A stretch of DNA of 64,000 nt from Candidatus Aminicenantia bacterium (GCA_965225955.1 CBDDBX010000027.1:9057-73056), one strand, 5' to 3'; counted from the stretch's first letter, positions 1,833 through 64,000 are shown. Program-made: numbers and translations. The notes: generated from the letters alone by a model not told the origin.

Positions 1833-2758
1833 TAATAAGCGCAAGCCGGCGGACAGATCTGCCGGCTTTCTATGGGGACTGGCTGCTCAATAGATTAAAG
1901 GAAGGTGTAGTTGATAGAGTTAACCCTGTGAACCCCCTTCAGGTAAGCCGTCTCCTTTTTACTCCTCAAACCATCGATTCAATAGTTTTCTGGACGAAGA
2001 ACCCTTCAGCTTTTCTGGTTAATCTGGATGAGGTGTTGAAGATGGGATACAGAGGGATGTTTCTTTTTACTCTCAACTCTTATACTCAGGAAGTTGAGCC
2101 AGGTATCGGAGATCTGAATTCAAGAATTGAAGCTTTCAAAGCAGTCTCAAAGATAGTCGGGAAAAGAGCTGTTGCCTGGAGATATGATCCTGTAATTCTC
2201 AGTACCAGTTTTACATCTGAATGGCATTTTGAGCAGATTGAGAAGATCTATAATAAACTTTCCGGTTATACAAACCGCCTGATTCTGAGTTTCTACGACT
2301 ACTACTCAGCACCACAGAAAAGGATGGCAGGAATTGATTCTCTAGATATGAGTGGTTGCTGTGACCATCTTAAGAGTCAGTTTATGAAGAGATTATCTGA
2401 TATGTTCAGAGAGGAAGAGATTGAGATCTCACTTTGTGCCCAGAAGGAAGACTACTCAGATTGTGGAATATACAACAGAGGCTGTATAGAAGGGAGAGAT
2501 ATAGCAGATCTCTTTGGGCTTAACATTAAGGCGGAGAGAGATAAAGGGCAGAGAGGAAGTTGCCTCTGTACCCGGTCTTTTGATATCGGAGCATACGAAA
2601 CCTGCAGATATAACTGCATCTACTGCTATGCAGATAAGAGGCGAAACAGAAATAAGCCTCATAAATACCACCATAATCCCGCCTCAATATCACTAATCCC
2701 TTACCCCCGAAACGCAAAAATCACAGTAAAAGATTTGACCTCCGGGTTATTCTGTTAA
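1829..2758 (+). CDS. DUF1848 family protein with a C-terminal CX3CX2C cysteine cluster.
   Basis: N-terminal SASRRTDLPAFYGDW is the DUF1848 hallmark as I recall it. C-terminal CRYNCIYCYADKR. ATGA start/stop overlap with the upstream M20 peptidase, so the two are translationally coupled. Confidence 0.6.
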   Translation: MIISASRRTDLPAFYGDWLLNRLKEGVVDRVNPVNPLQVSRLLFTPQTIDSIVFWTKNPSAFLVNLDEVLKMGYRGMFLFTLNSYTQEVEPGIGDLNSRIEAFKAVSKIVGKRAVAWRYDPVILSTSFTSEWHFEQIEKIYNKLSGYTNRLILSFYDYYSAPQKRMAGIDSLDMSGCCDHLKSQFMKRLSDMFREEEIEISLCAQKEDYSDCGIYNRGCIEGRDIADLFGLNIKAERDKGQRGSCLCTRSFDIGAYETCRYNCIYCYADKRRNRNKPHKYHHNPASISLIPYPRNAKITVKDLTSGLFC

Positions 2759-2759
2759 A

Positions 2760-3286
2760 AAATCACACAGATATTAACCCAATTGCAGGGATTTAATGTT
2801 GCATTGGTCAGGTATGCCACGCCCTTGCTACCTTTCATTCAGGCGTGCTGGGTAATAAACAGTTAAAAAATTGGTTTGACCTGTTAAACGGGCGCATACT
2901 CCGTTATGGTAGAACCATAACTCCGATGCGCCCCTACAAATCTCTCCTGTATATCAAATTTTGCAGGCCACGGCATAACTCTTATAACAAATTTTGACAT
3001 TAATCACTTGAAAATTAACCGCCAACACACGCCAATAAAAACAAATGCACACGAATAAATACACCGGTTGCAACCACACCTGACCCAATGATAAGAGACA
3101 CGGTTTGTAGGGGCGTATCGACGAGATTGCTATTGCAATCAAGGAGTATGCGCCCGTTTATCAGGCCACGGTATAATCTGAAAATTGTACAACGTGTTTC
3201 TTATTGTCAGATGAGGACTTCTGTTTGCCTTATTGTTAAGGCGTGTGGGTGAGGGGCGATCTAAGGTAGATCGCCGGTTTTATGGA
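2760..3286. repeat. REP/BIME-like modular repeat cluster A. Modules: 'ggcatgcca(c/a)gcccttgctacc', 'ggtttgacctgttaaacgggcgcatactccg..cgatgcgcccctacaaa' (forward at 2873..2940, inverted at 3104..3160), and a 'ctgtatatcaaattttgcagg' tail.
   Basis: The same modules recur at 4786.., 5771.., 6768.., 7065.., 9046.., 9255.. and 63820... Imperfect palindromes with an adjacent CTAC/GTAG. Confidence 0.8.
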
Positions 3287-4648
3287 TTATTTTGCCTGGT
3301 TCAGCAGGTTGCGATAGGTTTCTATCATTTCTGCTGTTGAAGTTGCAGCTTTTCTTTTCTTTGAATCTACAGATATATTTTCGTATTTGGATATAAGGTT
3401 CTGCATTGGCAGGTTAAGTTCTGCTGCTCCGGTTTTTATTCTGTCTTCAAGTATTGGAAGAGCAGCAAAACCAAGTGCTTCAATTTGTCTGCTTTTTTCA
3501 TCAGGTGATTCTGAAGAGTAGAGTATTGCATCTACTTTTTCAGGTAGTCTGGTTAAAAATCTATCCCAGCTGAACACCCAGCCTGATCCTGTTTCCCATT
3601 TTCCTGATACTGCTTTAAGATCTACAGCGGCAATTTTTTCAGCAGCTATTGCAAGAATATAATCTATCAGGCCATTCTCTTTAGTAGATTTGATTCTGTT
3701 CTTTATGGTTTCGAGAGCTTTGGGGCCCATTGCTACAATCTTTCTGAAACCATCATTATTGATATAGTCGTAAGGATTAGATGAATTCACATATCTGTTA
3801 ATATTAAATTCAAGTTCAGCAACGTGGTTCATTAGATCTCTGTCAGTTTCTGTATATGCTTTACGAAGTTCAGGGTCGCCACTCTCAACACTTAAGAAGT
3901 CAGAAGCATATTTACCGTTACTGTCGGTTACTGAAACCTCCAGCTCAAGACCGGAGTTTGAGGGCATCTGTGCTGAAGTGGAACTCTCTGTTCCTCCATC
4001 TATTGTGTCTTCGTATCTATTTGAGATCATCCAGCTGTATGTGTATGGCGGAACTCCGTTTTTGACTCTTACACTCCAGATCTGAGTAGTGTTTGGAGCT
4101 GCTCTGTTTGGGCCACGGATTTCAGCTGTCATACTCTTATAGTAGACTTTGACTTTTGCCCCGTAACCGGCTCTCTGCTGAGTGTATGGGTAGTTATACA
4201 ACTTGTGAGTGTAGTAGGTATTGTATGGGTCCCATGAATTGTGCTGCAGAAGGTTCAGGCCGCCGCATTTAGCCTGGCAGGCAGAAGAGCTTATCACTTT
4301 ACTGAAATGCCCAATGCTGTTTGTTGTTCCATAAGATATGATTTTTGCATAATGCCCATATGTTCTGTAACCTTTACTACTCATATAGGTGTTAACCTGA
4401 TTACTTGTAGGATTACTGCTTCCCCATGGCCATACCCACTGGTTTGTAATGCCAATAGAGTATGCAAGGCAGTTATAAGTGCCTGTACAGGGCCCAAGAT
4501 ATGACCAGGTGGTGCAGAAACTGTTGTAAAATTCCGTTGGGGTACCGTTATAGTCTGAAGGCTTGCATAACTGCTGCCCATAAGTATTGCCTGTTAAAAA
4601 CAGAAAAGTTATTAACAGAAAAATGGTAGCTGAAAATTTTTTAGACAT
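3287..4648 (-). CDS. Secreted multidomain protein of unknown function (signal peptide; Cys/His-containing N-terminal domain; PKD/Ig-like 'GVPPYTYSW' motif; helical C-terminal domain).
   Basis: 453 aa. N-terminus MSKKFSATIFLLITFLFLTGNTYG is a typical Sec signal. The YNCLAYSIG ... GHYAKI / IGHFSKVI spacing resembles papain-like/CHAP-type Cys-His hydrolases (weak). The gene sits between two REP clusters. Confidence 0.5.
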   Translation of the reverse strand: MSKKFSATIFLLITFLFLTGNTYGQQLCKPSDYNGTPTEFYNSFCTTWSYLGPCTGTYNCLAYSIGITNQWVWPWGSSNPTSNQVNTYMSSKGYRTYGHYAKIISYGTTNSIGHFSKVISSSACQAKCGGLNLLQHNSWDPYNTYYTHKLYNYPYTQQRAGYGAKVKVYYKSMTAEIRGPNRAAPNTTQIWSVRVKNGVPPYTYSWMISNRYEDTIDGGTESSTSAQMPSNSGLELEVSVTDSNGKYASDFLSVESGDPELRKAYTETDRDLMNHVAELEFNINRYVNSSNPYDYINNDGFRKIVAMGPKALETIKNRIKSTKENGLIDYILAIAAEKIAAVDLKAVSGKWETGSGWVFSWDRFLTRLPEKVDAILYSSESPDEKSRQIEALGFAALPILEDRIKTGAAELNLPMQNLISKYENISVDSKKRKAATSTAEMIETYRNLLNQAK

Positions 4649-4979
4649 TTGTCCTCCTTTCCCGCATGTTTTGAAAAACTAATAATCTCACAGCAGGATT
4701 TTGCTAAATATTTACCATTAAAACCATTGTATAAGATCCAGAAGAATTGTTCAAAGAATATGAAGATCAATAACTTTGCAGGTGCCAGGCATGCCAAGCC
4801 CTTGCTACCTTTTATTCAGGCGTGCAGGGGAGTGAGAGTCAATCTTGCAGATTCGGAGGATGCCGATTTTATCATAATAATGCATGGGTCAGGCATGCCT
4901 GACACCCTACACAATCATTGTATTACAAGACTTTACAGACCTGTTAAATAATAAGACACACCCAGGAATTTATCATTTT
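4649..4979. repeat. REP/BIME-like cluster B, including a P1 REP copy (gggtcaggcatgcctgacaccctacac at 4886..4912).
   Basis: Contains a 16-nt perfect palindrome gtcaggcatgcctgac plus a flanking CTAC. Shares the 'ggcatgccaagcccttgctaccttttattcaggcgtgcagggg' module with clusters A, C and D. Confidence 0.8.
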
Positions 4980-5498
4980 TTATAATAGTGGTGAATTCAT
5001 CTGATCTGTATCCCAATTTTTAGGATTATTGATTATGTATTCCCGGATAATATTTAATTCCCGGTCATTCCTTATGACTCTTTCCCAATAGTTACGCTGC
5101 CAAATTTTTGTTTTATCCCCTGAATTCATTTCATTTATTTTTCTGGTAACAGTTGATTTGAAAGACCCTATAATTGTAGATAATGATTGTTTAGTGGGTA
5201 ATATGCGAGAATGTAGGGGCTTGCCATGGCACGCCCCTGGAGATACTGTCATACAGATTATGCCGTGTACGTGATTTGGCATTACTATAAATTTATCGAG
5301 GGAGATATTTGAAAAATGGTTGGGGATTTCATTCCAGATAGAAAAGGCGATTTTCCCATACTGGCTTAATGACATTCTGTTATTGATGATATTGCCAAAA
5401 TAATGTTTTTTCTCATGTGTACATATAGTTACATAGTATGCACCAGCAGATGAATAATCCCTCTGGGGTAATCTGATTGATTGTCTGTTATGTTGCAT
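4980..5498 (-). CDS. REP-associated tyrosine transposase (RAYT; IS200/IS605 TnpA-like Y1 HUH enzyme).
   Basis: 172 aa. HUH motif in 'MPNHVHGIICM'; catalytic Tyr context 'IWQRNYWERVIRND'; size and motif order typical of RAYT/TnpA_REP. Flanked on both sides by identical P1 REP palindromes (4886..4912 and 5662..5688). Confidence 0.8.
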   Translation of the reverse strand: MQHNRQSIRLPQRDYSSAGAYYVTICTHEKKHYFGNIINNRMSLSQYGKIAFSIWNEIPNHFSNISLDKFIVMPNHVHGIICMTVSPGACHGKPLHSRILPTKQSLSTIIGSFKSTVTRKINEMNSGDKTKIWQRNYWERVIRNDRELNIIREYIINNPKNWDTDQMNSPLL

Positions 5499-5938
5499 TG
5501 TATATTTTGTTAATATAAAAAATATATGTTATTTGGAGTGATTAATCAAGAAGAAAATTTAAGAATAAATGCAGAGATCTTTGCGTGTGATCTTGTTGTA
5601 ACACCATATTAGAGGATAACGAATGCAGTTCAAGGGGAAGTGTTGTGTTGTTATGTTGCATGGGTCAGGCATGCCTGACACCCTACACGTCATTGTATTA
5701 AAAGGCTGTACAGATCTGTTAAATAATAACTGTACGGCTGATTAAAGGATTGCTGAATTGTGGTTGGGTAGGGGCTTGGCATGCCACGCCCTTGCTACCT
5801 TTTATTCAGGCGTACGGGGGTAATATAAGCAGTTAAAAAATTGGTTTGACCTATTAAATGGGCGCATACTCCGTTTGATTGGTTACGGCAATACTGTTTT
5901 ATATATTAGGTTTGTTTTTCAGATACCATTTGTGAGGG
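5499..5938. repeat. REP/BIME-like cluster C, including a P1 REP copy (5662..5688) and R2/R3 modules (5771..5885).
   Basis: Direct sequence identity to modules in clusters A, B, D and E. Confidence 0.8.
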
Positions 5939-6412
5939 TTACTGTTTTTGTTTGAGAGCCAGAAGTTCTTCTACGTCAAGTTTATCTTTTGTTCTGTTAA
6001 CAAGCCTCTTAGCTTCTATCAGTTCATCCATTCCAAGGATTCTGATTTTAAGGTTATCTACTACATCTTCAACTATATTGTTAAAATATTGAGCTGTTTT
6101 TTCTGTAGAGATACTGGTTATTATATCGATTGCATTTGGCTCTGCTCCAAGGTGAATAGCAGCACCTTCTTTAGTAAAAACTTCCGGGTCAATTCCAGCA
6201 TTTCCAAACCCGAAATCCGTTAACGCAATCATGACTTTTTCTGCGTTTTCTCTATTGGGGTTTATAAGAATATCAAAGTCAAATGTTGCTCTCATGTAGC
6301 CATAATAACTGACTGCATATCCGCCACAGACGGCATAATCTACATTATATTCATTAAAGAGCTCTATCAGCTCCTTCATATCATTTGTCAGTTTCAGCAT
6401 TGTCAAAGTCAA
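5939..6412 (-). CDS. Nucleotidyltransferase-fold protein (Pol-beta superfamily; AbiEii/DUF1814-like 'GG..x..R.T.DFD' motif). Putative toxin/effector of a two-gene module.
   Basis: 157 aa. 'VCGGYAVSYYGYMRATFDFDILI' fits the hG[GS]-x(9-13)-DhD nucleotidyltransferase signature. Its start overlaps the stop of the upstream 62-aa ORF. Embedded between REP clusters. Confidence 0.5.
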   Translation of the reverse strand: MTLTMLKLTNDMKELIELFNEYNVDYAVCGGYAVSYYGYMRATFDFDILINPNRENAEKVMIALTDFGFGNAGIDPEVFTKEGAAIHLGAEPNAIDIITSISTEKTAQYFNNIVEDVVDNLKIRILGMDELIEAKRLVNRTKDKLDVEELLALKQKQ

Positions 6413-6569
6413 GTTTGCGGATTTTTACTATTTTTTCGATTGGTTTGTTCCATGTACCCATGCGTTTTGCTAATAGGAGCATACGTTCAGGACCGGTCAT
6501 CTTGAGAATCTCTTCACGGCGGATCTGATCCTGATCTTCCACTCTGGCGATTTTTACAACCTTTTCCAT
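6381..6569 (-). CDS. Small hypothetical protein (62 aa), operonic partner of the nucleotidyltransferase; candidate antitoxin or regulator.
   Basis: Overlaps the 5' end of the NTase ORF by ~30 nt (or abuts it if the NTase starts at Met12). Charged, helical composition. No recognisable family. Confidence 0.35.
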   Translation of the reverse strand: MEKVVKIARVEDQDQIRREEILKMTGPERMLLLAKRMGTWNKPIEKIVKIRKLDFDNAETDK

Positions 6570-7357
6570 GTGTTAAATATATAATGCAGGGGAGTAGGAG
6601 TCAATCTTGCAGATTCAGGAGATGTCGATTTTGTTTTATTTCCGCATGGGTCAGGCATGCCTGACACCCTACACAATCATCAGGCGGTGATTTGACAGAA
6701 ATTATTACTGTTATCTGAAAAGGACTGTAAAAATTAAAAATTGACGCGCAATATTAATAAATTGTAGGGGCCTGGCATGCCACGCCCTTGCTACCTTTTA
6801 TTCAGCCGTGCGGGGGTAATAAGCAGTTAAAAAATTGGTTTGACCTGTTAAACGGGCGCATACTCCGATACGCCCCTACAAACCGCTTCTCTTATTATCA
6901 ATCGGGGATTGTTTAATAATGTTTTGATTCTAATCTTTATGTTTATTCGCGTGTATTTGCGTCTTTTTTGGCGTCCATTCGCGGTTAATGCTGATTTTTA
7001 AACCGTTCGGGAATTCTGTTTGTCTTATTTTAAGGCGTGCGGGGAGATAAACATCTGATAAATTGGTTTGACCTGTTAAACGGGCGTATACTCCGTTATG
7101 GTGGAACCATAACTCCGATACGCCCCTACAAATCTCTCCTGTATATCAAATTTTGCAGGGCACGGCATAATCTGAAAATTGTACAATGTGTTTCTTATGA
7201 TTGGGTAGGGTGTGGTTGATTTATTCGTGTGTATTTGTTTTTATTGGCGTGTGTTGACGTTCGGGTATTTGTTTGGTGTTTATTTGTGTGCATTGGTGGT
7301 TCCTTCTGTGTTATGTTTCGGGTTTCTGGTATACTTTCGGATTATTATGGAGGAGTT
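6570..7357. repeat. REP/BIME-like cluster D: P1 copy at 6649..6675, an R3 short form at 6837..6880, an R3 long form at 7065..7133, and the module 'ttattcgcgtgtatttgcgtcttttttggcg...cggttaatgctgattt'.
   Basis: The modules repeat nearly verbatim at 9125..9235 and 9340..9440. The 5' leader of the C69 dipeptidase gene is built from these modules. Confidence 0.8.
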
Positions 7358-8941
7358 ATGTCAATTAAGAATTTTTTGATTGGAGGGCTTTTATCTGCCC
7401 TTGTTATGACACCTGTTTTTGGTGAGGATGATGCTTGTACTACTATTACAGTTGGTAAGAAGGCTTCAACTGATGGTTCTGTTATGACTTCACACACCTG
7501 TGATTCAAGAACCACAAGAACATGGATAGATATTGTGCCTGGAAAGAAGCATAAACCCGGTACAATGAGAAAGGTTTATGGTTCAACTGAGAGAACTGTC
7601 AGTGCAGACAACTTATCAGCAAGAAAGCTGAGAGGTGAGATTGCTCAGCAGGCAAGAACCTATAAGTATTTCAACTCTGCTCTGCCTTTTATGAATGAGA
7701 ATCAGGTTGGTATTGGTGAAGCTACTTTTGGTGGCAAAAAAGAGATGAAAAGTGATAACGGACTCATCGACTACAGGGAGCTTAACCGCCTTATGGCTGA
7801 GAGAGCTACTTCTGCAAGAGATGCTATCAGAGTTGCTGATGAGGTAACTAAGAAGTATGGTTATATCTCCGGTGGTGAGTGCTTCACTATTGCTGATACT
7901 AAAGAGGTGTGGCATCTTGAAATTGTTGGCCCTGGTAAGGGTAAAAAAGGTGCTGTATGGGTTGCTCAGAGAGTACCGGATGATCATGTTAGTGTAAATG
8001 CAAACGCTTCAAGAATCAGAGAAGTAAAGACTAATGATAAAGAGAACTTCATGTATTCAGAGAATGTCTTCTCAGCTGCTGAAGAGGCTGGTCTCTGGAG
8101 TAAATCAAGTGGTAAAACATTTGAGTTCTGTTATGTTTACGGTTCAAGAAGAAGTATGGCTTCAAGAAGAAGAGAGTGGAGGGTATTTGATCTCCTGGCT
8201 CCTGGTCTTAAACTAGATCCTAATGGAGAGAATTTTCCTTTTTCAGTAAAACCTGAAAAAAAGGTTGCCCCTTCAGATATTATGAGAATCTTCAGAGATA
8301 CTTATGAAGATACACCTTTTGATATGACCAAATATATGCTGGTTCAGGAGAAGGACGATAAAGGAAAACTTACAGGTAAGTTTGTAAAGAGTCCTTATGC
8401 TAACCCTTTTATGCACTACGATATGATGCCTCTCTTTAAAGTCAATGGTGGTTGGAATGAGATGGGGGAGAGATGTATTGCAAGATACTACTGTACTTAT
8501 GTTACCGTAATTCAGCTGAGAGACTGGCTCCCTAATGAGATCGGTGGTCTTACATGGTTTGGTCTTGATAATACAGCAACCACTTCATATGCTCCTCTCT
8601 ACGCAGGTATGACATCTGTTCCCCAGAGTTACAGAATCTGCGGTCGTCCCGGCTTTAACAGAGATAGTGCATGGTGGGCTTTTAACCGTGTTGCTGACCT
8701 TGCTGCTCAGAAATGGGGCTATATGAGAAAAGATTGTAAGAAGGTCTGGAGTGTTTATGAGAAAGAGGCCTTTGATAAACAGGCTGATATTGAAAAAGAG
8801 GCACTGCGTCTTCATAAAAAAAGTAAAAAGAAAGCATCTAAATACCTCAACAAGTACAGTAACGACTGGATGAACAAACTGGTTAAAGCGTACTGGAAAC
8901 TTGGAGATGATCTCTGGAGTAAATACACAGGAAAATTCTAA
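7358..8941 (+). CDS. Peptidase C69 family dipeptidase (secreted; Cys nucleophile right after the signal peptide).
   Basis: 'ACTTITVGKKASTDGSVMTSHTCD' matches the C69 N-terminal nucleophile region. Signal peptide MSIKNFLIGGLLSALVMTPVFG. GGAGGAG RBS 6 nt upstream of the ATG at 7358. The longer ORF-track start at 7229 reads through repeat sequence and is rejected. Confidence 0.8.
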   Translation: MSIKNFLIGGLLSALVMTPVFGEDDACTTITVGKKASTDGSVMTSHTCDSRTTRTWIDIVPGKKHKPGTMRKVYGSTERTVSADNLSARKLRGEIAQQARTYKYFNSALPFMNENQVGIGEATFGGKKEMKSDNGLIDYRELNRLMAERATSARDAIRVADEVTKKYGYISGGECFTIADTKEVWHLEIVGPGKGKKGAVWVAQRVPDDHVSVNANASRIREVKTNDKENFMYSENVFSAAEEAGLWSKSSGKTFEFCYVYGSRRSMASRRREWRVFDLLAPGLKLDPNGENFPFSVKPEKKVAPSDIMRIFRDTYEDTPFDMTKYMLVQEKDDKGKLTGKFVKSPYANPFMHYDMMPLFKVNGGWNEMGERCIARYYCTYVTVIQLRDWLPNEIGGLTWFGLDNTATTSYAPLYAGMTSVPQSYRICGRPGFNRDSAWWAFNRVADLAAQKWGYMRKDCKKVWSVYEKEAFDKQADIEKEALRLHKKSKKKASKYLNKYSNDWMNKLVKAYWKLGDDLWSKYTGKF

Positions 8942-9433
8942 ACAGGCATTCTGCCATTAAATATCATGGGTCAGGCATGCTTCAGCAAGCTCAGGACTGG
9001 TTGCCTGACCCCTTACATACGTTACCGTATTATGAAATCTTTCAGACCTATTAAACGGGCGCATACTCCGTTACGGTAAAACCATAACTCCGATACGCCC
9101 CTACAAACCGTGTTTCTTATTATCAATATGTTTATTCGCGTGTATTTGCGTCTTTTTTGGCGCCTATTCGCGGTTAATGCTGATTTTTAAACCGTTCGGG
9201 AATTCTGTTTGTCTTATTTTAAGGCGTGCAGGGGGATAAACATCTGATAAATTGGTGTGGCCTGTTAAACGGGCGTATACTCCGTTACGGTAAAACCATA
9301 ACTCCGATACGCCCCTACAAACCGTGTTTCTTATTATCAATTGGGATTGTTTAATAATGTTTTGATTCTAATCTTTATGTTTATTCGCGTGTATTTGCGT
9401 CTTTTTTGGCGTTTATTCGCGGTTAATGCTGAT
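8942..9433. repeat. REP/BIME-like cluster E: an interrupted P1 copy (8968..9017 with a ~23-nt insertion), two R3 long forms (9046..9104 and 9255..9319), and duplicated 'ttattcgcgtgtatttgcg...' modules.
   Basis: Direct sequence identity to clusters A-D. The cluster abuts the stop codon of the downstream minus-strand MATE gene. Confidence 0.8.
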
Positions 9434-10837
9434 TTAAACCGTGCGGGTTTTCCATTTGCCTTTTCTGAAGAGGTAGAGTCCTGTTATTGCCATTACTCCT
9501 TCAGCAATGATTATTGCCAGATAGACCCCTTTTGCATCCAGAGTAGAGTGGAGTGCAAGGTATATCGCCAGAGGGATTTCAAGAGCCCAGAAGCAGAATA
9601 TGTTTATAATAGTTGGAGTCATTGTATCTCCTGCTCCGTTAAAGGACTGTACCATAACCATTCCTATTCCGTAGAAGATGAATCCGTAACTTATAAATCT
9701 CAGAGCCGTTGCACCATGCTCTATAAGCAGAGGATCTGCAACCTGATTTATGTTGATGAGTTTTATGAAAACTTCAGGTATTGTAGCGAATACAATTCCC
9801 AGAATCCCCAGAATAGCAACATTGGTCATACTGGCAATCCATACAGCTCTTTCAGCTCTGTCAGATCTTTTTGCACCAAGGTTCTGACCTACAAGGGTAG
9901 CCGCTGCATTACTCAGTCCAAGAGACGGAAGAAGTGCAAAGATGATAACTCTTATGGCAATAATGTATCCTGAAGCTACCTTTGCTCCGAAGTTGTTAAC
10001 TATCTTCATGAGAATGATCCAGCTGGAAGTAACAATAATTGATTGCCCTATTCCACCTATAGATAGTTTGAATATTCTCTTCATTATGGATAAGTCGGGA
10101 ATAAAACTCTTAATATCTACTTTTACAACCCCTTTGCCCCCAAACAGAAGGTAGAACTGGTATATAACAGCAACACCACGACCTATATTTGTGGCAACTG
10201 CTGCTCCGGTAACACCCATTTCAGGAAAAGGGCCTAAACCGAAAATAAGACAGGGGTCCAGAATAATATTCAGAAGGTTTGCGAGCCACAGTACCCTCAT
10301 GGACCTTGCAGCATCACCGGAACTTCTGAAAACAGCATTAATTACAAAAAGAAGAAGAATTACACCATTTCCTGTAAGCATAACCTTTGCATAGTTACTG
10401 CCAATGGCTATAGATTCTGCAGGAGCATCCATAAGATGCAGCAGATCTGTAGAGAAGAAGAAGCCAATTGCTGCAATAACTGCAGATACAGCAATTGCAG
10501 CTACAATAGCCTGTCCTGTTACCTTTGATGCCAGTTCAGGTCTCTTTTCACCAATTCTCCTTGCAACCATGGCGGTTGTTGCTGCACTAAGGCCCACGCC
10601 AATTGAGTATACAATTGTTATAAGGGATTCGGTTGTACCAACAGCTGTAATTGCGGAGTCTCCCAGTTTTGAAACAAAGGCTATATCCACAACTGCAAAT
10701 ATTGATTCCATAACCATTTCCAGAATCATTGGAATGGAGAGGAGAAGAATTGAGCGTCCCAGAGGAAGAGAGGTGTAGTCTCTCTGAACGCCTCGAATTG
10801 AGTCAATAATATCTTTTAGTAGTCTTCTGTAGTTCAT
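9434..10837 (-). CDS. MATE family efflux transporter.
   Basis: 467 aa, ~12 predicted TM segments. N-terminal 'LLLSIPMILEMVMESIFAVVDIAFVSKLG' is typical of the MATE/NorM family. Confidence 0.8.
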   Translation of the reverse strand: MNYRRLLKDIIDSIRGVQRDYTSLPLGRSILLLSIPMILEMVMESIFAVVDIAFVSKLGDSAITAVGTTESLITIVYSIGVGLSAATTAMVARRIGEKRPELASKVTGQAIVAAIAVSAVIAAIGFFFSTDLLHLMDAPAESIAIGSNYAKVMLTGNGVILLLFVINAVFRSSGDAARSMRVLWLANLLNIILDPCLIFGLGPFPEMGVTGAAVATNIGRGVAVIYQFYLLFGGKGVVKVDIKSFIPDLSIMKRIFKLSIGGIGQSIIVTSSWIILMKIVNNFGAKVASGYIIAIRVIIFALLPSLGLSNAAATLVGQNLGAKRSDRAERAVWIASMTNVAILGILGIVFATIPEVFIKLININQVADPLLIEHGATALRFISYGFIFYGIGMVMVQSFNGAGDTMTPTIINIFCFWALEIPLAIYLALHSTLDAKGVYLAIIIAEGVMAITGLYLFRKGKWKTRTV

Positions 10838-56499: not shown

Positions 56500-56589
56500 G
56501 GAGAGTTGGCAGAGCGGTTGAATGCGGCGGTCTTGAAAACCGTTGAGCCTTTGCGGGTTCCCGGGGTTCGAATCCCTGACTCTCCGCCA
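56500..56589 (+). tRNA. tRNA-Ser (anticodon UGA), class II with long variable arm, CCA encoded.
   Basis: Hand-folded: 7-bp acceptor stem GGAGAGT/ACTCTCC, a D arm, anticodon stem GCGGT/ACCGT with loop CUUGAAA (UGA at positions 34-36), a ~19-nt variable arm, T arm CGGGG-TTCGAAT-CCCTG, discriminator G, CCA. Confidence 0.9.
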
Positions 56590-57129
56590 TACATCCCTTT
56601 CAAAATCACAAACTTCTCAAATCAAAGAAAATTCCATATTGAATAGATGCGTCTCAGGGATGAGAATCCCGGAGGGGTTTGATTAAATCAGCTTGCTGAT
56701 TAAAGAAACCTGAGCTTGCGAAGGTTCCCGAAGGGTGAGCGTAGCGAATCAATCTCTGACTCTCCGCCATTTCTTTCTTTTTTAAAATTACAAAATTCAC
56801 AACTTAATAATAATTTTTCATCCTTCTTTATTTCGGGATTCGAACATTTATGTAGTGATAAGCTGCGTTCCTCGCTTATTCCCATCTGCGACATTACTCA
56901 TCCTTCACTTCGTTACGTCCTTCGTTCGCAGACCCTGACTCTCCGCCATACATCCCTTTCAAAATCACAAACTTCTCAAATCAAAGAAAATTTCATATTG
57001 AATAGATGCGTCTCAGGGATGAGAATCCCGGAGGGGTTTGATTAAATCAGCTTGCTGATTAAAGAAACCTGAGCTTGCGAAGGTTCCCGAAGGGTGAGCG
57101 TAGCGAATCAATCCCTGACTCTCCGCCTC
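56590..57129 (+). repeat. Tandem array of three ~180-bp units directly abutting the tRNA-Ser 3' end. Units U1a (56590..56769), U2 (56770..56948) and U1b (56949..57127) each end in a 14-16-nt copy of the tRNA 3' end ('ccctgactctccgcca'). U1a and U1b are near-identical; U2 is unrelated internally.
   Basis: Direct sequence comparison. U1 also carries a degenerate ~40-nt copy of the tRNA 3' half ('ggttcccgaagggtgagcgtagcgaatcaatctctgactctccgcca'). Confidence 0.8.
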
Positions 57130-63689: not shown

Positions 63690-64000
63690 TGGTTGAGGGC
63701 GGATACAATACTTTCCCTATGATAGGGCAAAGTAAGATCCGCCCCTACGGGTGATTTGAGTATTAATATGTGCGTTTAGGTTTTACAAGTATGTTGGGGG
63801 AGTGAGCGGATGGTGGGTTGGTTTGGCCTGTTAAACGGGAGCATACTCCGTTATGGTAAAACCATAACTCCGATGCTCCCCTACAAATCGTGTCTCTTAT
63901 CATAATATCGGTGTTGTTTTTTGTGCTGTTATTCGCAAGCTCACTACTCCTGCGGAGACCCCTGCAAATCGTGTTTCTTATCATGATGTTGGTGTTATTA
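63690..64000. repeat. REP/BIME-like cluster F at the window end. Palindrome 'gggcggat...atccgcccctac' (63694..63748), R3 long form (63820..63880), and a duplicated 'ccctacaaatcgtgt(c/t)tcttatcat' tail.
   Basis: Same module family as 2760..9433. The R3 copy carries compensatory changes (gggagcat / atgctccc) that preserve the stem. Confidence 0.75.

Follow-up and report, generated by a model that had tools for sequence, protein, structure and literature searches.

In E. coli, a single HuH/Y1 enzyme, TnpAREP, acts on the folded GTAG strand of the REP (PMC8266576; PDB 4ER8). It binds the GTAG strand only and acts on three REP types, while mismatches in the stem impair the cleavage of REPs with a perfect stem (PMC8266576). 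TnpAREP proteins of subclass 2.4, which equals Bertels group 4 (PMC6006769), are recognized by the motifs NH[IFV]H, WQ and YIxNNP and by a variable insertion between the HuH and Tyr motifs that holds an in-frame REP (PMC6006769, Table 1), and the in-frame REP has been described as unique to this subclass (PMC6006769). The REPs of subclass 2.4 are long hairpins with a GT[AG]G foot and three basal G-C pairs, and 'double-foot' forms are also known (PMC6006769). The report of compensatory changes in REP/REPIN hairpins dates from 2011 (Bertels & Rainey, PMC3116915), and that of REPs within the tnpAREP genes of subclass 2.4 from 2018 (Quentin et al., PMC6006769).

Our analysis concerns R3, which is an ordinary intergenic hairpin repeat (REP) near a REP-associated transposase gene (RAYT). 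In the window, that is, the whole 64-kb stretch of DNA analyzed, R3 is present in seven complete copies and one truncated copy, all of them intergenic, with a chance expectation of approximately zero. The core pattern, in which the stem positions were left free (TAAAY-N8-ACTC-N(0-30)-CGAT-NNN-CCCCTACAAA), had seven matches in the window against 0.00 expected from shuffles, so the family described in an earlier note on this DNA does exist at the coordinates given there. Half-site patterns led to the truncated eighth copy (start 5860), and an HMM built from the R3 alignment detected no copy in the 64-kb window beyond those already known. The truncated copy and the minus-strand copy at 3107-3155 were absent from the earlier list. 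The eight copies and one sister element are distributed in two clusters within this one 64-kb window:

2890 to 2937, plus strand: R3 long form, GGGCGCAT-ACTCC-GTTATGGT-AGA-ACCATAAC-TCCG-ATGCGCCC-CTAC, perfect outer stem with C-G at pair 6
3107 to 3155, minus strand (copy 3155): R3 long form with another inner hairpin, outer stem GGGCGCAT/ATACGCCC with C·A (G·T on the GTAG strand)
5860 to 5897, plus strand: truncated R3, left arm GGGCGCAT and ACTCCG, right arm gone after ATAC
6854 to 6879, plus strand: R3 short form, GGGCGCAT-ACTCCG-ATACGCCC-CTAC, with a C·A mismatch
7082 to 7129, plus strand: R3 long form, GGGCGTAT/ATACGCCC, perfect stem with T-A at pair 6; doublet A, upstream of the C69 dipeptidase gene
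9057 to 9104, plus strand: R3 long form, outer stem GGGCGCAT/ATACGCCC with C·A, inner stem GTTACGGT/ACCATAAC also with C·A
9271 to 9318, plus strand: R3 long form, GGGCGTAT/ATACGCCC with T-A, inner stem with C·A; doublet B
63697 to 63748, plus strand: sister element, GGGCGGAT-(32 nt with a CCCTA-TGA-TAGGG hairpin)-ATCCGCCC-CTAC
63837 to 63884, plus strand: R3 long form, GGGAGCAT/ATGCTCCC, pair 4 changed from C-G to A-T on both sides, perfect stem

The long form is laid out as TAAAC / GGGCGCAT / ACTCC / GTTATGGT-NNN-ACCATAAC / TCCG / ATGCGCCC / CTACAAA and has a conserved 17-nt extension, GGTTTGACCTGTTAAAC, on its 5' side. In each of the seven complete copies the outer stem has a length of 8 bp and a GGG/CCC base. 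In agreement with the earlier note, which had placed CTAC/GTAG immediately outside the stem, CTAC directly abuts the 3' arm in these seven copies as well as in the sister element, and is read as GTAG at the 5' foot of the other strand. The loop is occupied either by 6 nt (ACTCCG) or by one among several unrelated small hairpins. In copy 3155 this hairpin is GATTGC-AATA-GCAATC, in register with the usual one, and the interior of the truncated copy resembles it (TTGATTG...GCAAT); the distance between this truncated copy and the start codon of the RAYT gene is 362 nt. The sister element has the outer stem of R3 except for G-C at pair 6, together with an unrelated interior; it is situated 90 nt upstream of copy 63837. 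The only inverted pair of whole copies is formed by 2890 and 3155, approximately 170 nt apart. Between the convergent genes that enclose these two copies a single site is terminator-like, namely a 9-bp G+C-rich hairpin followed by GGTTTTATGG (3255-3275), and plus-strand transcripts may thus read through both copies.

The outer stem of R3 is kept paired mostly, but not always. The earlier note had considered it perfectly complementary in every copy, which is incorrect: it is perfect in four of the seven complete copies and mismatched in three (3155, 6854, and 9057). The stems that it gave for 2873..2940, 7065..7133, 9255..9319, and 63820..63880 were all recovered, at 2890-2937 (GGGCGCAT/ATGCGCCC), 7082-7129 and 9271-9318 (both GGGCGTAT/ATACGCCC), and 63837-63884 (GGGAGCAT/ATGCTCCC), and the inner hairpin is indeed cleanly absent from the short form (6854-6879). 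The copy at 9046..9104, on the other hand, had been misread as gggcgtat, the actual arms being GGGCGCAT...ATACGCCC with a C·A mismatch.

The number of independent observations is reduced by duplication. Two direct repeats of approximately 300 nt (6834-7142 and 9037-9331), 95% identical, lie on either side of the C69 dipeptidase gene and each contains two R3 copies, the first with C·A and the second with T-A. Copies 6854 and 9057 therefore represent one lineage and copies 7082 and 9271 another, which leaves five independent R3 lineages. The short form 6854 differs from 9057 by an exact gap of 22 nt bounded by ACTCCG direct repeats, and such a gap is, judging from its sequence, the signature of a slippage deletion.

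Across the seven complete copies pair 6 is C-G in two, T-A in two and C·A in three, and with the sister element included its paired states are C-G, T-A, and G-C. True double changes in the outer stem are the A-T of copy 63837, the T-A shared by 7082 and 9271 (one lineage) and the G-C of element 63697. The only two private core substitutions of copy 63837 occupy partner positions and are complementary (C>A / G>T). Copy 3155 has three pairs changed on both sides and two broken ones in its inner hairpin (GATTGC/GCAATC, compared with TATGGT/ACCATA). Exact permutation of the right arms among copies gave, for the outer stem, p = 0.095 with the seven R3 copies and p = 0.15 with the five independent R3 lineages. 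When element 63697 was added the values became p = 0.012 and, on independent lineages, 0.025, with 5 of 500 shuffles reaching the observed value. Pair 6 taken alone was not significant, as both T copies would meet an A with p = 0.48 given that A is found in five of the seven right arms. That all four variable columns of the outer stem form exactly two pairs has p = 0.015, while six of the eight substitutions in the inner hairpin of copy 3155 fall in three compensated pairs (approximately p = 0.009). Five double changes were counted at the true register vs. zero to two in controls with a slid register. The unpaired internal loops (ACTCC, TCCG) and CTACAAA were found to be conserved to the same extent as the stems.

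These results bear on the proposal of the earlier note that covariation in the stem implies selection on the hairpin. Its own C-G/T-A example carries no statistical weight: there are three mismatched intermediates, and the two T-A copies count as one event since 7082 and 9271 belong to a single 95%-identical duplication. The proposal as such is weakly favored by the other changes. The coordinated changes in 63837, 63697, and 3155 together are moderate evidence that pairing has been preserved, the sequences being too few for a formal demonstration, and the few coordinated base changes are modest evidence that the R3 hairpin is preserved. Given that template switching can yield paired changes in one step, selection on the R3 hairpin is not demonstrated by them.

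The two strands of R3 differ in their capacity to fold. All mismatches are C·A on the CTAC strand, which corresponds to G·T on the GTAG strand, so that the latter has standard pairs in 100% of the outer-helix cells and in 98.1% of all cells. The full 8-bp outer stem is predicted on the GTAG strand in all seven copies, with DNA folding energies of -6.3 to -15.5 kcal/mol and Z-scores of -2.7 to -6.0; for copy 2890 the DNA fold has -14.7 kcal/mol (z = -5.7). In the predictions for the CTAC strand, 3 bp of the stem are missing from each of the three mismatched copies, and the fold of copy 9057 (-6.1 kcal/mol, z = -0.9) is no better than those of shuffled sequences. Only two independent polymorphisms lie behind the restriction to G·T (approximately p = 0.25), and the strand asymmetry is thus weak by itself, although the GTAG strand is the one bound by E. 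coli TnpAREP (PMC8266576). R3 offers a small set of natural data bearing on the question of which strand is under constraint. Folding of approximately 200 nt around R3 gave no stable larger enclosing structure. The GTAG strand is on the C-rich strand in six of the seven copies. By GC skew the C-rich strand would be the leading-strand template, an orientation that is unexpected for an enzyme acting on single-stranded DNA of the lagging template.

The transposase gene and the palindromes of other families around it are the following:

4980 to 5498, minus strand: RAYT/TnpAREP gene, 172 aa, Y1/HuH transposase with a PF01797 match
5213 to 5237, minus strand: in-frame REP-like palindrome in the RAYT gene, GGGGCGTGCCATGGCAAGCCCC+TAC, between the HuH and Tyr motifs, encoding GACHGKPL
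5662 to 5688, plus strand: third palindrome family, CTAC-footed, GGGTCAGGCATGCCTGACACCCTACAC, with identical 27-mers also at 4886-4912 and 6648-6674
6764 to 6794, plus strand: 'double-foot' palindrome, GTAG-GGGCCTGGCATGCCACGCCC-TTG-CTAC, approximately 60 nt upstream of an R3 copy and with the opposite foot orientation

Many homologs of the protein carry the name 'REP element-mobilizing transposase RayT'. Among solved structures the best relative is E. coli TnpAREP (PDB 4ER8, profile E = 2e-5), ahead of ISDra2 TnpA; a single-sequence search returned no match. Against the NCBIfam model of REP-associated tyrosine transposases (NF047646) it scored 63 bits, below the cutoff of 80. The translation contains NHVH, WQ (IWQRN), and YIINNP, and the residues of WQ....E(R)..R, aligned to the region that contacts GTAG, are kept. 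The closest homolog (P0002, 59% identical) carries the same in-frame palindrome (L121:704-727). On the basis of the motifs and the in-frame REP, the gene at 4980-5498 is assigned to TnpAREP subclass 2.4. The REP/RAYT framing of the earlier note is supported by these subclass 2.4 motifs and by the GTAG foot and three basal G-C pairs of R3.

In a REPtron, the tnpAREP gene has copies of one and the same REP on its flanks, at a distance of up to approximately 1 kb. Regarding the relation of this enzyme to R3, the truncated copy 5860 is the only one within 1 kb of the RAYT gene. The palindromes that directly flank the gene belong to two families other than R3, and the GGGTCAGGCATGCCTGACACCCTACAC 27-mers at 4886-4912 and 5662-5688 do so in direct orientation. 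The closest RAYT homolog is likewise flanked by a REP of the GGCATGCC type and not by R3. R3 and the RAYT-flanking families have the same foot (GTAG) and the same stem base (GGG(C)), and, considering also the three REP types served by the E. coli enzyme, it is plausible by analogy that one RAYT acts on R3 and on the flanking families. Copies related to the double-foot palindrome were found at 2801-2831, 4778-4808, and 5768-5798; the left arm of this family is degenerate in two copies, and the copy at 2801 looks like a hybrid with the GGGTCAGGCATGCC family.

The surroundings of R3 are also structured. Three units are found together both at 2801-2937 and at 6764-6879, namely a palindrome of the GTAG-first type, a linker that is conserved, and an R3 copy of opposite foot orientation; a truncated version of this arrangement occupies 5768-5873. 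Around R3, the 5' and 3' flank modules are present in all four combinations (segments 2830-2990, 6794-6940, 7022-7190, and 9211-9380): the 5' type is shared by 2890 with 6854 and by 7082 with 9271, and the 3' type by 2890 with 7082 and by 6854 with 9271. This points to recombination or independent joining at R3. Judged by its REP types, linkers and flank combinations, the region reads as a BIME-like mosaic. A 93-nt module containing TTATTCGCGTGTATTTGCGTCTTTTTTGGCG was also observed three times beside R3 copies (6905-6997, 9094-9186, and 9343-9435). The synteny of the C69 dipeptidase gene, which stands between the two direct R3 doublets (95% identical), is not conserved in relatives. Its neighbors there (L118-L120) are different, and it may have relocated together with the repeats of approximately 300 nt. 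Judging from the homologs of this dipeptidase, the organism is close to Candidatus Aminicenantes, and it is probably an uncultivated member of that lineage.

A number of searches were also performed beyond the window. No R3 was found with specific R3 patterns in JGI metagenomes and IMG/VR, nor in approximately 50 kb of DNA from relatives, and the relatives with a 78-81% identical C69 dipeptidase (L118-L120) had neither R3 nor GC-rich CTAC-footed hairpins. Scanning a collection of genome contigs with the loose pattern TAAAYGGGNNNATACTCC gave 117 stretches, all of them chance matches and none with the right arm. Ten spurious ORFs of the window that read across R3 had no counterpart (0/10) in the protein collection.

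Several other identities were considered for R3 and rejected. With respect to known Rfam RNAs, only a tRNA-Ser passed the gathering threshold, and the region 2700-9500 had no match even at E <= 1. This tRNA-Ser gene (56500-56589) is the only tRNA gene, and within its last 16 nt begins a 195-nt direct repeat (56574-56768 and 56933-57127, 99% identical), which may have been left behind by an integrated element or have arisen by duplication in place. No R3 copy appeared in the scan for intrinsic terminators, the total count of which was below the shuffle expectation, and the stem is followed by CTACAAA with no T-run; no promoter signal was found at R3 either. An integron attC site is suggested by eye, the 5' flank GTTAAAC fitting GTTRRRY, but a complementary inverse core is lacking on the 3' side of the element. 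Finally, R3 is not a REPIN, as neither of its arms, GGGCGCAT and ATGCGCCC, forms a hairpin by itself, each being a half-site of 8 nt.

We consider it rather probable that R3 is a REP whose GTAG-strand hairpin is a putative substrate of the RAYT for copying or recombination, with hairpin-competent variants spreading and resident copies decaying through wobbles. The functional core would be the 8-bp outer stem with its GGG/CCC base and the GTAG that abuts it on one strand. Folded as single-stranded DNA, the GTAG strand would be the form that the RAYT recognizes, cuts or joins, and copies or variants able to fold on this strand would be propagated or recombined, in which case new variants would appear with both arms changed. 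Residents would then decay by single transitions, here only those that give G·T wobbles on the GTAG strand, while the short form would have arisen by a slippage deletion between two ACTCCG direct repeats.

Three other explanations of the paired changes have to be weighed against this one. Intramolecular template switching in one step (quasipalindrome correction), or arm-to-arm conversion during replication, would copy one arm from the other and thereby produce complementary stems with no selection for hairpin function. As an inverted repeat of DNA whose spacers are short, R3 is a substrate for this mechanism (PMC7202029), which is known to create and 'compensate' hairpin stems (PMC8794818). 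Read palindromically, each of the two double changes is also one and the same substitution on both strands (pair 4, C>A; pair 6, C>G), and the exchange or deletion of the inner hairpin at ACTCCG repeats indicates replication-slippage activity at this locus. However, such an origin leaves unexplained why three copies still have an uncorrected C·A / G·T, why the flanks vary around a GTAG foot and a GGG/CCC base that do not, and why unrelated interiors all form hairpins. We regard it as unlikely on its own account, bearing in mind that template switching and selection are not mutually exclusive. An absence of any constraint, with young duplicates whose covariation reflects shared ancestry and chance and whose stems are intact for lack of time, appears very doubtful. 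It would fit the conservation of the unpaired ACTCC, TCCG, and CTACAAA at the level of the stems, the location of the duplicates 7082/9271 and 6854/9057 within 95%-identical 300-nt repeats, and the permutation values for R3 alone (p = 0.095 to 0.15) and for T with A at pair 6 (p = 0.48). It does not fit the two private core substitutions of copy 63837, complementary and on partner positions (approximately 1/24 given one change per arm), the likewise complementary partner changes of element 63697, or the six pairs that the inner hairpin of copy 3155 keeps despite eight substitutions (approximately p = 0.009).

Selection could also act at the RNA level. The REPs of E. coli have been reported as barriers to 3' exonucleases or as processing sites, and R3 might similarly be selected as a UTR stem-loop, its RAYT neighborhood being incidental. 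In agreement with this, all copies are intergenic, the predicted hairpins are stable, and 2890, 3155, 9057, 63837, and 63697 each follow the nearest upstream gene and have the same orientation as that gene. Nevertheless, the sense transcript would carry the CTAC strand, on which C·A removes 3 bp in three of the seven copies, so that the strand compatible with the wobbles is the antisense one. Copies 6854 and 7082 are, moreover, upstream of a gene, and the lack of a T-run and of terminator or promoter signals at R3, as well as of any Rfam match even at E <= 1, also argues against an RNA function, which we consider very unlikely. Returning to R3 as a RAYT substrate, a stronger version would make its stem the in vivo cut-and-rejoin site of a subclass 2.4 RAYT, that is, a small site-specific recombination junction that reassorts flank modules, swaps loop hairpins and may have carried the C69 dipeptidase gene. 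Such a junction would explain all four flank combinations, and if true it would provide natural evidence of REP-mediated rearrangement, beyond REP proliferation. We believe that this version is distinctly unlikely.

Compared with the long REPs of subclass 2.4, R3 is alike in its GT[AG]G foot and in the three consecutive G-C pairs at the base of its stem (PMC6006769). The locus also resembles the REPtrons of this subclass in that several REP families are present per genome and the neighboring tnpAREP contains an in-frame REP (PMC6006769), and the palindrome GTAG-GGGCCTGGCATGCCACGCCC-TTG-CTAC fits the 'double-foot' form (PMC6006769). Unlike subclass 2.4 REPs, R3 either lacks a nested hairpin in its loop or has one, for which at least three unrelated sequences occur among the copies. 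It also has the 17-nt 5' extension GGTTTGACCTGTTAAAC, and no copy except the truncated one closely flanks the RAYT. The probable host lineage of R3, Aminicenantes, is absent from the taxa listed in PMC6006769, Table 1 (Cyanobacteria, Bacteroidetes, 'various phyla'). With the REP/BIME system of E. coli, R3 shares GTAG feet, several palindrome types, conserved linkers and alternating orientation between genes. However, E. coli REPs require a conserved bulge and a perfect stem abolishes activity (PMC8266576), whereas the consensus stem of R3 is perfect, like that of group 3 REPs, and the RAYT found near R3 is no more than a distant relative of 4ER8 (profile E = 2e-5). The REPINs of P. fluorescens SBW25 have, like R3, conserved inverted ends and a variable spacer, and hairpin formation is key in both (PMC3116915). 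A REPIN is nonetheless a doublet of two palindromic REPs (PMC3116915), whereas the arms of R3 are 8-nt half-sites, and REPINs are associated with group 2/3 RAYTs and reach hundreds of copies (PMC3116915), compared with eight copies of R3 in one 64-kb window.

The current understanding of REPs is left unchanged by these observations, given that both compensatory changes in REPs and in-gene REPs of subclass 2.4 have already been published. R3 appears to be a lineage-specific REP family, in which the nested exchangeable loop hairpin is a minor peculiarity. It adds a REP family with a nested exchangeable hairpin, together with a putative subclass 2.4 REPtron, from a poorly studied uncultivated lineage.
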